Origin: an uncultured Acidimicrobiaceae bacterium
Lineage (GTDB): Bacteria; Actinomycetota; Acidimicrobiia; Spongiisociales; UBA5794
Direction of reading: 5' to 3'
Assembly (NCBI GenBank): GCA_964569015.1
Contig: CAZMSN010000001.1
Span: 36,439-95,444, forward strand
DNA length: 59,006 bases
The notes under the pieces were generated by a model. That model saw nothing but the letters and a program-made list of their open reading frames with translations. It was not told where the DNA came from and made no database searches. Position 1 is the stretch's first letter, and every line of letters begins with the position of its first letter. The position numbers and the translations under genes are program-made. Shown one piece after another: positions 46,244 through 52,512 of the stretch.

Positions 46244-46340
46244 CGCGGGTTCAACGAGGTTTCGTCGAGCGAGCGCAGCCCAGTTGGACCTAGGGAGTCC
46301 GCGGAGCGATGGTCGACGAGACCTCGCCCCGCCCCCGCTA
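46244..46340 (+). repeat. tRNA-Met 3' fragment 1 with 72-bp T-loop insertion (46255-46326)
   Basis: cgcgggttcaa + insert + ccccgcccccgcta. Confidence 0.92.
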
Positions 46341-46346
46341 CGAAGG

Positions 46347-46380
46347 AAGGCCCCGGTCAGCGAGCTGCTGGCCGGGGCTT
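46347..46380 (+). terminator. Hairpin after tRNA fragment 1
   Basis: aaggccccggtcagc-gagct-gctggccggggctt. Confidence 0.7.
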
Positions 46381-46430
46381 CTACCGTCTGTGGTCTTCTT
46401 CTACCGTCGCTTCTACCGGATGTTCTACCG
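46379..46430 (+). repeat. Four TTCTACCG repeats, candidate integrase arm-type sites
   Basis: Exact copies at 46379, 46399, 46411, 46423. Confidence 0.75.
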
Positions 46431-46433
46431 GGC

Positions 46434-48513: not shown

Positions 48514-51063
48514 TCAGACGGCTGCGGGGAGGGCGAGTTCGAAGGTGCTTTCTCCTGGTTGGTGCTGGTAGGTGAGGTCTCCGTCCATGAGCCGGGCAAG
48601 GTGGCGCGAGATGGTGAGACCCAAACCCAGTGAGGCGGTCAGTCCGGGTGCCTGGTGGGCCCGCTGGTAGGACTCGAAGATGCGTTCGCGTTCTTCTTCA
48701 GGTATGCCGGGCCCGTTGTCGCTGACCGTCACTCGGGCGGTCGTATCGTCACTACTCACGTTGATTCGGATTCGGTCTCCGCCGTAGCGGTGGGCGTTGG
48801 AGATCAGGTTGCGGAGGATCTGCCGGACCCGGGCAGGGTCGGCTGTCGCCCGGACCCCAGACCCGGTGAATTCGATATGTCTGGCATTTGGTTGGTGCCA
48901 GCTCTCCAGAATCTGTGCTGTTTGGGCTCGCAGGTCGACGGGAACATGTACCACGGTGACGGTCCCAGCTTCGGCTTTGGCGGCCGTGAGCAGGTCTTCG
49001 ACGATGTTGGTGAGGTCGGCGCCTTCGTCGGCGATCACCCGGATTATCTCAGTCCGTTCCTCACCCGACAGCCCGGAGGTTTCGTCTTGGAGGACCTGGG
49101 CGTAGCCGACCACTGCGGTCAAGGGGGTGCGCATCTCATGGGCGATCGAAGCGATCAGCTCATTCTTAGAGCGTAATGAGGTTTCGAGCGACTTCCGGGT
49201 GTGCACTTGTTCGGTGATGTCACGAACGATCACCATCGTTTCGTCCGATCCGGGAATGGGGAAGACGCGAGCTTCCCGCTCGCGGAGTACGCCGTCTACC
49301 TCGTACTGGTACTCCCACGACTGGACCTCACCGGACTGGTGCGCCCGCCGATACGCTGATGCCAGCTCGCCGGCCAGTTCCGGCGGCAACGCCTCATCGA
49401 TGTGTTTGCCGACGAACCGCTCCGGAGCGGGAATGAATCCGGGCGCATCGGGAACTTGGTAGGAGAGGTAGGCGCCGTCCGGGCTGAGACGAAAGACCAG
49501 ATCCGGGATAGCTTCGAGCATGGCCCGACTGCGGGCTTCGCTGACCCGCAGGGCCTCTTCGGCCAGCTTGCGTCGGATGCTGGAACTGAGTTGTGCTGCC
49601 ACCGTCGAGATGGTGTCGACCAGGTTCTGATAGTCATCTGGAAGCGACGCGAGGAGGAACACCAGCACAGCCACTGTCTCGTTGCCGCTCAACGCCGGAA
49701 TCCCAACCGCCGCTTGAATCCCAAACCGCGCAGCCACGTCCCTGCGCACAAAGTCCGGGTCGTGAACAACATCGGAGAGCACCACCGGCTGTTGAGAGTT
49801 CCATGCCCGCCCGGGTAGGCCGCGTCCCGGCTCAAAGGTGACCGACTCGCTCGCCTTGCGAAAGGCCTTGAATCTCTCCGATACCGAGTAGAAGGCGTCA
49901 CTGGCCTCCAGCCGGGAACCATCCGCACTCGGTATCCACGCTTCTCCCCCCATCCAGCCGGCGTACTCACATACTCTGCGCAGAACCACCCCGAGCGCAG
50001 TCTCGAGATCATCGCTGGAGGTGATGTCGTCCATGCACTGGTGCAGGAGGCTGCGCTGTTCGAGCAGCTCGTCCTTGGAGCCGATCGATTCCCGCAGTCT
50101 CTCTTCGGTTTCGGCGAGCACGCGACGCTGGTCGTCGATGTGGTCGACACGCCTTCCGATCGTGATCACCACGGAACAGGCGACGGTGATCACAGCGGCG
50201 ATGGCGAGTTGAAGGGAGAGTGAGGGATTGGAGGTCAAAGGGTCCACGACATATCGGGCCAGCAGGGCAATCCCCAAGGAGGCGCCGCACACGATCGGGA
50301 CGTAAAGGCGGATGACTTGTCCGCCGGCACGATTCGACACGATGGGCCGCATCAACCCCAGGTCCGGATCGCAATACAGCACGGACAGGCCGACCGCCAC
50401 GTGAAGGACCGAAGTATTGATGGCCATTTGGGTGGCATGTCCGATCAGACCGGCAAGCTCGACAACTCCCAGCGCGTACCCCAACACCGCCAACGCTGCG
50501 ATCGCCGCTGCGATCGTTGCGAGAATCTGACGGGTCCATATGCTCCGCCGGGTCGCGAGCAGATAGAGCGCAGGGCCAAGAAGCGCATAGTTGATTGCCG
50601 TGTTGGCCCCCATGCGCCCCGGATTCGAGGTCGCTACCGCCCCGAGACCCTCATGGGCGAGGAGCTGATCGAAACCGGTCCAACCGAGGCCGGCCACATA
50701 CTCGACGGTCGTGACCCAGCCGATCAGGGTTACCAGGGTGGCCATTATCACCACGAGCCCGGGCCACCAGCCGCGCCGGTGGGCGACAACACCGAGACCG
50801 GCCGCGCCGATACCCACCGCCGTGTTGGCTTTCATGGTCACACTGCCCGGGATTACCCGGGCCACAATGTCGACTCCCAACCACCAGCCGACCACCAGAA
50901 CCGTCACCCCCGCCACCAGAGCGATCCAGCCAAGCAGCTCCGCCGCCACCCGAAACCGACGGACAAGCACCGGAGCAACCGTGTCCCACCCTTCCGGCCC
51001 GCCATCAGGCTGCATCCCCTCAGGAGGTGGTTCAACCAAAACCTTGTGTGCAGTGGCGGTCAT
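48514..51063 (-). CDS. Membrane sensor histidine kinase (multi-TM, GAF, PAS, HisKA, HATPase)
   Basis: Several TM helices, GLPGRAW GAF, AIPDLVF PAS, AHEMRTP, NLISNA, DNGPGI, GLGL. Confidence 0.92.
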   Translation of the reverse strand: MTATAHKVLVEPPPEGMQPDGGPEGWDTVAPVLVRRFRVAAELLGWIALVAGVTVLVVGWWLGVDIVARVIPGSVTMKANTAVGIGAAGLGVVAHRRGWWPGLVVIMATLVTLIGWVTTVEYVAGLGWTGFDQLLAHEGLGAVATSNPGRMGANTAINYALLGPALYLLATRRSIWTRQILATIAAAIAALAVLGYALGVVELAGLIGHATQMAINTSVLHVAVGLSVLYCDPDLGLMRPIVSNRAGGQVIRLYVPIVCGASLGIALLARYVVDPLTSNPSLSLQLAIAAVITVACSVVITIGRRVDHIDDQRRVLAETEERLRESIGSKDELLEQRSLLHQCMDDITSSDDLETALGVVLRRVCEYAGWMGGEAWIPSADGSRLEASDAFYSVSERFKAFRKASESVTFEPGRGLPGRAWNSQQPVVLSDVVHDPDFVRRDVAARFGIQAAVGIPALSGNETVAVLVFLLASLPDDYQNLVDTISTVAAQLSSSIRRKLAEEALRVSEARSRAMLEAIPDLVFRLSPDGAYLSYQVPDAPGFIPAPERFVGKHIDEALPPELAGELASAYRRAHQSGEVQSWEYQYEVDGVLREREARVFPIPGSDETMVIVRDITEQVHTRKSLETSLRSKNELIASIAHEMRTPLTAVVGYAQVLQDETSGLSGEERTEIIRVIADEGADLTNIVEDLLTAAKAEAGTVTVVHVPVDLRAQTAQILESWHQPNARHIEFTGSGVRATADPARVRQILRNLISNAHRYGGDRIRINVSSDDTTARVTVSDNGPGIPEEERERIFESYQRAHQAPGLTASLGLGLTISRHLARLMDGDLTYQHQPGESTFELALPAAV

Positions 51064-51716
51064 GCGTCACCCCCGGTCGCACCGACAAACAGCCTCCAGC
51101 CACACACGGCCTGAAGCCGATCGCCCACCACAGCGAACATCACGACCGCTGACTCGTCCATCTGCCATGCCTCGTAGACCCTCGATCGTCCGGCGAACCC
51201 CTCACACAGCTCGCAGCAATCAGAGAACGCCACCCCAACCGACCTGACGCACAGCAGATAGACGAAATGGCTCGTCGCTGGTGAAATCGTTGTCGCAACA
51301 ATCCTATCGTTTTTCAACACGGTTCGCCGAGTAACCAGCCAACTTGAAGACCCATCTGCCCGTATGAGACGGGCCCGCCCGACGGGCGAGCAAAACGCTT
51401 CAGCTAAGCCACGGCGTCATCAAGCGACGCCACCCAGATCGCCCAACATGTCGCCTCGCCGACCATCCGCCGAAACCAACCCGAGCGGCACTCACCGAGT
51501 ACCACGATGATCCTTCAAGGCTATACCGGCGTTCGTCGATGAAGCTCGAAACCACCGTGGTGACCAAGTCGCGACATGCCGTCGAGGCCGGTCTATACCG
51601 AGCCTCGCCCACCAAACCGCAAGAGAGGCGCCGGAGCCCTCGATCAGGTCGACAGAACGGCCAATGTTGCGTCTCGATCTGAACCCGACAAGACCGCAAG
51701 GTGGCTAGTTCCGTTG

Positions 51717-51959
51717 ATGCCACGCGAAACGGTACCCAAACCGGAAAGGGTCGAGGCCGATAGCGAGAACGTGAACGGAATCAGCCCACGATGCTATGCC
51801 TGCGGCAATCAGGCTGTGATCCGCGACCGGAATGGCTTGTGGTGCGGCAGATGTGCCCTCAGACACATAGCCGTCGACAACCGGGACGACACAGACCGGC
51901 AACGCCGAGGAGACAAGCCGAGACGGATCACACGGAATCGGCAAAGACACGCCAGGTAA
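51717..51959 (+). CDS. Possible small zinc-finger protein
   Basis: CYAC-x13-CGRC and basic tail; start uncertain. Confidence 0.4.
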   Translation: MPRETVPKPERVEADSENVNGISPRCYACGNQAVIRDRNGLWCGRCALRHIAVDNRDDTDRQRRGDKPRRITRNRQRHAR

Positions 51960-52391
51960 GCCCGACCGCGGTAAGGCTGACAGGCCGCAACGGCCGGCAA
52001 GCCGATTCAGACAGTGAACTACGGTGGCCTGGACCTCGTCGTCTCCGGGGGCTGATCGAACCAGAGCCATACGAGGAGACTCTGCTGGTCATCGACCTGG
52101 CATGTGACCGCTGCACGGCGACGTTCACTGCAGCGGCAGCGTCCGCTTCGCTGCCGTGAACCATCATTCGCCGCCACAAGGACTCGTCTCCTTTCGAGGC
52201 GGGGTGGAGACCACGGAGAGTGGCTGCTTCCGCTCGACTTCCGAGGGTGCCTGCTGAGTGCGTCTGAAGCCAGCCTGAAGCCCAACGACCTGACACAGGC
52301 CGACATCACCCGTCATCCGTTAGCAGCGGTTCTGCTTCATGCCAATGGTGATCATCGTTATCGACTCTTTCATACGCTATCGGGGACCCCT

Positions 52392-52512
52392 TCGTCGGGC
52401 TCATAACCCGAAGGTCGCGGGTTCAACGAGGTCTCGTCGAGCGAGCGCAGCCCAGTTGGACCTAGGGAGTCCGCGGAGCGATGGTCGACGAGACCTCGCC
52501 CCGCCCCCGCTA
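52392..52512 (+). repeat. tRNA-Met 3' fragment 2 with 72-bp T-loop insertion (52427-52498)
   Basis: 35-nt exact match from anticodon arm to TTCAA, insert, then ccccgcccccgcta. Confidence 0.95.

Follow-up and report, generated by a model that had tools for sequence, protein, structure and literature searches.

Probable Concerted Evolution, by Gene Conversion, of a Palindromic Insert in Displaced Initiator-tRNA Remnants of an Acidimicrobiia Island Array

Here, we examined a 59,006-nt stretch of DNA (the window) from an uncultured Acidimicrobiaceae bacterium (assembly GCA_964569015.1, contig CAZMSN010000001.1, positions 36,439 to 95,444 of the forward strand), in which an initiator tRNA gene, tRNA-fMet, is followed by a tandem array of small, decayed tyrosine-integrase islands. 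Three displaced copies of the 3′ part of this gene, the remnants, lie in the array, and each is interrupted in its T-loop by a palindrome of 72 or 76 nt, the insert, which we found only in one salt-marsh Acidimicrobiia-like population, with three copies per genome at this site. A single base separates the copies of remnants 1 and 2. Our findings favor, with some confidence, a model where an old palindromic insertion specific to this lineage, which only dead tRNA copies tolerate and which has no demonstrated function, spread among the remnants and was homogenized there by short-tract gene conversion; in this model the copying by gene conversion, the single origin and the lack of a function are inferred. 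On this reading the insert is a curiosity rather than a new system.

The insert, its copies and its variants

The T-loop, TTCAAAT and free of an insert in the intact gene, is broken in all three remnants: an imperfect palindrome follows TTCAA, measuring 72 nt in the first two and 76 nt in the third. The loop thereby becomes TTCAA-insert-C, its last two bases being replaced, with no target-site duplication. The ends of the insert are perfect 14-bp inverted repeats, CGAGGTCTCGTCGA and TCGACGAGACCTCG, and the predicted fold of the whole is a long hairpin whose basal stem has 14 bp (minimum free energy -36 to -40 kcal/mol, z -3 to -4 versus shuffles). A sequence-only reading of this DNA, made before the present analysis, had named inserts 1 and 2, both of which stand, and had overlooked the third insert-bearing remnant.

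Alignment and folding bear out the earlier statement that inserts 1 and 2 are identical at 71 of 72 positions, the sole difference, T versus C at insert position 7, facing a G in the basal stem, where it gives a U-G or a C-G pair and keeps the pairing. Identity reaches 99/100 over the blocks 46244-46343 and 52416-52515 and collapses at the last tRNA base. The two integrase genes of the islands, int1 and int2, belong to different lineages (~76% identity; synonymous divergence, dS, ~0.67); set against the near-identical inserts, this upholds the proposal that the insert spread or was homogenized after the islands had diverged. At a divergence of 24%, the probability of finding one difference or none in 72 nt is 6e-8. 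Also as reported, the 66-aa N-terminal open reading frames (ORFs) of the integrases differ at 16 of 66 residues (translations, counted by hand) and the hairpins behind remnants 1 and 2, described as terminators, are distinct in sequence; the integrase N-domains, however, are not adjacent to the inserts, as was said; each belongs to the opposite end of its integrase gene, ~1.1 kb from the insert.

Insert 3 is far less similar, matching inserts 1 and 2 at 55 of 76 positions (72%). Between these copies three stem pairs and one distal pair are changed on both sides, with the stem kept; covariation support is weak, as only four sequences are available and 17/500 shuffles reach the observed score. 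Further variants come from related loci (L numbers are our own handles for loci and contigs compared with the window). In a strain allele of copy 1 (L059, L067), GTTTCG in the 5′ arm is replaced by TGGGCA, that is, five substitutions within 6 nt, which make up 5 of the 7 differences in 2.5 kb and abolish the long hairpin. A fourth variant occurs on a low-abundance contig of run X2, at the copy-1-type locus of a related lineage, where the left flank differs at 5/30 positions and the right flank is different. This variant is a mosaic, with arms like those of insert 2 and a centre (cccagCtggacTCaggga-tcTTgcgg) intermediate between inserts 2 and 3; it differs from insert 2 by 8 substitutions and 2 indels over 97 nt, and from copy 1, flank included, by 14 substitutions and 2 indels over 129 nt. 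The location of this variant places the arrival of the insert at the copy-1 locus before the separation of these lineages. From one lineage to another the divergence of the insert is roughly that of its flanks, with mosaic and clustered changes. The orthologous copy-1 insert is diverged whereas paralogues 1 and 2 are one base apart, a signature of concerted evolution. The insert is not strongly constrained, and the pattern is one of concerted evolution rather than strong purifying selection. The alternative offered by the sequence-only reading, a much stronger constraint on the insert than on the surrounding DNA, is not supported, in view of the distance of copy 3, the stem-breaking allele and the fourth variant.

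The distribution of the insert is narrow. A strict two-block pattern (CGAGCGAGCG-N20-40-GCGGAGCGATGG; a looser, T-loop-anchored one might reach further) gave 29 matches in 185,579 species genomes, all due to chance and in unrelated contexts, and 44 matches in JGI metagenomes, with five real contigs, all from these three loci and from salt-marsh samples. BLAST searches of phage and plasmid collections matched the tRNA part alone, and an integrase-based search of IMG/VR returned distant integrases only; a bare 16-mer of the insert, for which chance matches are to be expected, had 32 matches in IMG/VR, none of them in a context covered by this analysis. A covariance model built from four variants recovered only the three copies of the window, with none in 224 kb of related loci, and Rfam searches at gathering and permissive thresholds left the insert unmatched (best matches, E >0.6, to unrelated miRNA models). 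Contig depth over the insert is about that of single-copy flanks, so it is not high-copy.

The insert is absent from 9/9 full-length tRNA-fMet occurrences (window, L030/31, L032/33, L034, L059, L083/84, L085) and from 12 occurrences of remnants in relatives (L030/L031, L081, L082, L083/L084, L049/L067), equivalent to ~10 distinct remnants since L030/L031 and L083/L084 are near-duplicate loci. It is a separable insertion or deletion. The earlier view of the insert as an independent unit is therefore only partly sustained: it is separable and missing from equivalent attachment (att) sites of related islands, yet it shows no sign of autonomous mobility, having no copies beyond the three tRNA-fMet remnants, no target-site duplication and no high copy number. 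The insert-free att sites that the same reading had suggested looking for were found in the closely related island L030, but not as alleles of the three copies themselves in seven metagenome runs.

A tandem array of decayed islands at tRNA-fMet

The one tRNA gene in the window is an intact initiator tRNA-fMet (ARAGORN; Rfam tRNA model, 65.6 bits) with anticodon CAT and a C1xU72 mismatch. It is the attL of the island array, and three partial copies of its 3′ part follow downstream (table 1). A tyrosine recombinase gene lies beside the tRNA 3′ end, tRNA 3′ direct repeats bound each island, and the order behind each remnant is a hairpin, arm-type repeats, then an integrase gene or its remains. 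Every tRNA end, working or remnant, is followed by a strong hairpin of its own, the sequences differing among them; a simple terminator scanner left these hairpins unflagged, whereas folding shows them clearly. The hairpin behind the working gene is separated from remnant 1 by ~25 nt, and the 60 nt between gene and remnant may be what is left of a newest island ("island 0") that has been lost for the most part. The locus shares with known tRNA and tmRNA island arrays the integrase at the tRNA 3′ end, the copy from anticodon stem to 3′ end, the direct-repeat fragments, the arm-type repeats and the decay. Unlike in related arrays, where none of ~10 comparable remnants is interrupted, its fragments are broken in the T-loop by a hairpin of 72-76 nt.

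The motif TTCTACCG has eight matches in the window versus 0.5 expected by chance, six exact copies bracketing int1, and it is also present behind the tRNA in related elements. These repeats likely represent arm-type integrase binding sites (P′ arm). The island 2 copies of the motif are degenerated.

Relatives illustrate the simpler state. In L030, L032, L034, L083 and L085 the same integrase stands beside an uninterrupted tRNA-fMet, with the element's own hairpin and arm repeats, and in intact relatives (L030; also L032, L034 and L081-L085) a single island is bounded by a tRNA and a remnant that both lack the insert. L030 and the window are syntenic, with the UPF0182 neighbour and the response-regulator/kinase cargo of island 2 in common; the L030 island ends in a 50-nt uninterrupted remnant (attR), the left flank of which matches that of window remnant 3. 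We rejected the idea that the attP of these elements generally includes the insert: for both islands, close relatives occupy tRNAs without an interruption, and the far remnant of L030 is uninterrupted. The insert may, nonetheless, have been in the attP of particular copies that entered the array via secondary sites.

In the sublocation scheme attributed to Williams (2002, Nucleic Acids Res 30:866), an incoming element reportedly supplies T-arm, 3′ end and terminator, the old ones being displaced downstream. On our reading, the islands entered tRNA-fMet successively through tyrosine integrases crossing over at the anticodon loop; each arrival brought a fresh tRNA 3′ half with its own hairpin, and the half already in place was shifted downstream, where it stayed as a dead remnant. 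Two remnants of L081 have different T-arm variants (gcggg vs gtagg), coherent across both strands of the T-stem, and the variant travels with the right-hand flank, placing the crossover left of the T-arm; in the window, the CGA or CCA ending of a remnant likewise tracks the right flank. Both patterns fit a classical anticodon-loop crossover. The T-stem covariation in L081 and the CGA/CCA endings of copies 2 and 3 speak against a crossover within the T-loop or at the very 3′ end.

L049 and L067, strains of the same population, carry one more island in tRNA-fMet, which the window strain and L059 lack, with a freshly displaced remnant that is uninterrupted (L049:1100-1431 and L067:1-120 vs window 46100-46140; the identity block starts at the anticodon loop after cccggaaggaa); the array is thus still polymorphic for new arrivals. 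In L082 (minus strand, near 2153), one of four remnants stops inside the T-loop after GGTTC and continues into unrelated coding sequence, a second case of a T-loop breakpoint in a displaced copy.

Both local integrase genes are pseudogenes, and no excision joints were seen in the contigs. Their family comprises 6544 homologues, with intact members of 379-393 aa, typically combining PF14659 and PF00589, and with named sources that are Acidimicrobiia or Actinomycetota metagenome-assembled genomes. The 66-aa N-terminal ORFs (47334-47534 and 53541-53741, minus strand) correspond to the first part of each pseudogene, up to an in-frame stop. In int1 this stop is a TAG at codon 67 (47334-47336), and ~16 aa present in intact relatives are deleted in frame; int2 has a TAA at codon 67 (53541-53543), two further TGA stops and a frameshift. 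The int1 deletion (~48 nt, 16 codons, RSIPKIEQQAWTAVQL in L030) falls in the linker before the catalytic domain (window 46950-47060 vs 53130-53240). The same Tyr codon is cut in both pseudogenes by different mutations, TAC CTG in intact genes reading TAG GTG in int1 and TAA CTG in int2; the int1 stop directly precedes a possible GTG restart, and both genes keep a free-standing 66-aa N-terminal ORF of arm-binding type. The shared stop is either a coincidence (a few percent, as a rough estimate) or the outcome of selection for a truncated DNA-binding fragment; the ratio of nonsynonymous to synonymous divergence (dN/dS) of the 66-aa part, 0.38, is no different from that of the remainder (0.30).

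At the DNA level int1 and int2 are ~76% identical (BLAST), and hairpin plus integrase match at 925/1275 positions counting gaps (~73%). Int2 shares 91% identity with the integrase gene of L030, which is intact, and int1 ~79% with that of L034. Between integrase lineages dS is ~0.67 with a dN/dS of 0.15-0.17, rising to 0.31 on the short int2/L030 branch; such a dS, with a dN/dS of 0.17, indicates that most of the divergence between int1 and int2 arose while both were functional elsewhere. By these substitution patterns, the two genes belong to different element lineages, which diverged as working genes before arrival and decayed afterwards. An in-situ tandem duplication of an att-plus-integrase module was rejected: int2 is far nearer to L030 than to int1, and the divergence is mostly synonymous.

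Weighing the explanations

Under the model that we find rather probable, a palindrome of ~72 nt would once have inserted into the T-loop of a dead tRNA remnant, where it was cost-free, and would from there have come to occupy all three older remnants. Its absence from working tRNA would follow from the fact that it would destroy an essential gene. Copies 1 and 2, 6.2 kb apart, would have undergone a recent non-reciprocal homologous exchange, that is, gene conversion, and the flanking integrases would look far more diverged because the two element lineages were already apart before integration. Concerted evolution by gene conversion is known for rrn operons, tuf genes and insertion sequence (IS) copies. 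The present case resembles these in that paralogues are closer to each other than to the orthologue in a related lineage, and in its mosaic variants and clustered substitutions; it differs in that the homologous tract is only 100 nt long and one partner has no left-hand tRNA homology.

Several points weigh against this model. All three old remnants are occupied, with no empty allele in the seven metagenome runs, whereas unbiased conversion with insert-free tRNA as a possible donor should occasionally erase the insert. The tRNA homology beside the insert is short (~35 and 17 nt, and only 11 nt left of copy 1), and would serve poorly to bring the insert into a remnant that lacks one. No exact donor for the TGGGCA allele was found in the window, the nearest being copy 3, with 2 mismatches. 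The four double-sided stem changes are also predicted by selection for structure. Finally, the source of the 72 nt is left unexplained, a weak point of the model.

The closest analogues among small elements share only some of these features. Intervening sequences (IVSs) of 23S rRNA are extended stem-loops that replace a helix loop, occur sporadically among rrn copies and strains, and are homogenized by gene conversion. Like them, the insert is a long hairpin replacing a few loop nucleotides of a structured-RNA sequence, is patchily distributed, and shows a likeness among copies best explained by conversion; unlike IVSs, which interrupt working rRNA genes and are cut out by RNase III, it occurs only in dead tRNA fragments. 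None of the nine full-length tRNA-fMet occurrences carries it (0/9), and inspection of the junctions revealed no bulge-helix-bulge geometry. With miniature inverted-repeat transposable elements (MITEs), repetitive extragenic palindromic (REP) sequences and REPINs, and Rickettsia palindromic elements, the insert has in common a small size (~70-150 nt), terminal inverted repeats, a whole-element hairpin, the lack of coding capacity and tolerance inside other features. Those elements, however, are multi-copy and dispersed, whereas the insert has three copies at one homologous site. MITEs make target-site duplications and the insert, which does have terminal inverted repeats, makes none; searches of the window, related loci, genomes and metagenomes gave it no further context. 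A conserved head of GTAG type and an association with RAYT transposases mark the REPs; the insert sequence has no GTAG head. As for integron attC sites, the left junction GTTCAAC fits RYYYAAC, but the right end (...GACCTCGCCCC) lacks GTTRRRY. Insertion always after TTCAA and without duplication is consistent with the IS200/IS605 family, but the insertion cost the target two bases, and the hairpin is a single one spanning the whole element, not a pair of subterminal ones.

A second explanation, which we regard as unlikely although better placed than the remaining ones, is that the insert is a tiny non-autonomous mobile or homing element that enters the T-loop of tRNA-fMet site-specifically with a recombinase or nuclease acting in trans, copies in working tRNA being purged by selection and inserts 1 and 2 being alike through the same recent source. 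The identical insertion point in three remnants that were available at different times speaks for such an element, as do presence and absence between otherwise homologous att sites, the 14-bp inverted termini, the filling of all older remnants with empty alleles unseen, and the existence of several sequence variants. Yet there are only three copies per genome, in one array, and none elsewhere in 185,579 genomes, JGI metagenomes, phages and plasmids (with the strict pattern); two target bases are lost without a target-site duplication; the newest remnant in L049/L067 is still empty, as are ~10 sister-lineage remnants with the same integrase family; and the insert has no linked candidate enzyme, the two local integrases being dead.

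Distinctly improbable, in our view, is a third explanation, that the hairpin is selected as RNA or DNA, either disabling old att remnants or acting as a terminator or processing signal, with near-identity reflecting purifying selection. In its att-lock version, splitting the ~50-nt direct repeats would stop RecA- or integrase-mediated loss of islands carrying useful two-component systems, and the repeat homology is indeed split into pieces of 35 nt and 17 nt. The stable folds (z -3 to -4) agree with selection, and so do the survival of four stem pairs through double changes, the G-U wobble at position 7 and the blocks TCGAGCGAGCG and GCGGAGCGATGGTCGA, invariant in four fully read variants, with no difference reported for the fifth. 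Palindromes can, however, hold their symmetry without selection through template-switch mutation (quasipalindrome mutagenesis), which counts against this explanation. Moreover, a segregating allele destroys the long stem without visible consequence, the centre of the insert diverges as fast as flanking non-coding DNA, every comparable array in relatives lacks the insert, every remnant already has a strong downstream hairpin, and Rfam yields no match.

The more striking forms of the last two explanations, a minimal site-specific selfish element that homes to initiator-tRNA T-loops and persists only in remnants, copied by a nuclease or recombinase in trans that cuts empty T-loops, or else a selected "lock" that inactivates used att sites and thereby keeps the islands where they are, together merit little credence.

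An assembly artefact, with one copy collapsed or duplicated, which the sequence-only reading had named as a possible refutation and which a 100-nt repeat exceeding typical k-mers allows in principle, has a negligible probability: each copy with its own unique flanks is present in JGI contigs of separate origin (copy 1 in L049 and L067; copy 2 in L041, with 100% identity over 2760 nt; copy 3 in L053 and L121) and in Logan assemblies from other runs, the single T/C difference was reproduced, and agreement across several samples and assemblers indicates that the repeat is real.

Should gene conversion among dead remnants be the right account, displaced tRNA fragments at island borders would offer free space for insertions that are lethal in the gene itself, and 100-nt repeats 6 kb apart could evolve in concert. 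Concerted evolution of att repeats would imply that comparing att with integrase divergence can mislead on island age. Also, island-boundary finders and tRNA annotators will miss or split remnants with an interruption of ~72 nt. Only if homing or the att-lock were true would the insert bear on how integrative elements and hosts fix or immobilize islands.

Features of the locus and minor observations

Table 1. Coordinates of the tRNA-fMet gene, remnants, inserts and island features in the window
Feature	Position	Strand	Evidence
Intact initiator tRNA-fMet	46108..46182	+	ARAGORN, Rfam
GC-rich hairpin directly 3′ of the tRNA	46185..46217	+	Fold -27.4 kcal/mol, z -5.2
tRNA remnant 1, T-stem to 3′ end only (anticodon arm lost), carries insert 1	46244..46343	+	
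Insert 1, 72-nt imperfect palindrome replacing AT of the T-loop after GGTTCAA	46255..46326	+	
Four direct TTCTACCG repeats, between remnant 1 and the 3′ end of int1	46379..46430	+	
int1, tyrosine-integrase pseudogene	46434..47534	-	
Two further TTCTACCG copies upstream of int1	47570-47589	-	
Island 1 cargo: membrane GAF-PAS histidine kinase, 849 aa	48514..51063	-	Pfam
tRNA remnant 2, anticodon stem to 3′ end, carries insert 2; island 1/island 2 junction	52392..52515	+	
Insert 2, 72 nt	52427..52498	+	
int2, tyrosine-integrase pseudogene	52561..53741	-	
Island 2 cargo: OmpR-type response regulator and HAMP histidine kinase	54044..56142	+	Pfam
tRNA remnant 3, anticodon stem to 3′ end (reads CCA), carries insert 3; island 2 right end	57062..57188	+	
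Insert 3, 76 nt	57096..57171	+	

A motif resembling TTTCGCCTGGTCAGCGAA is conserved 10-20 nt left of remnants in several different islands of this family (window 57040-57062; L030 ~6700; L081 ~11290 and ~4080; L082 ~11290, ~4160 and ~2180) but window remnant 2 has no such motif on its left; proteins may bind it as part of the P arm, or it may be an outward promoter. Near the right end of island 2, two tandem 123-nt units, 81% identical (56301-56546), lie within a small minus-strand ORF (56273-56728) with no Pfam match. Beyond remnant 3, a 99-aa ORF (57261-57560, minus strand) has a weak similarity, at E 4e-5 and below the Pfam cutoff, to the DEDD domain at the N-terminus of IS110-family transposases. 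It sits 70 nt past the remnant, where a third integrase would be expected, and looks like the leftover of an IS that displaced or replaced the island 3 integrase.

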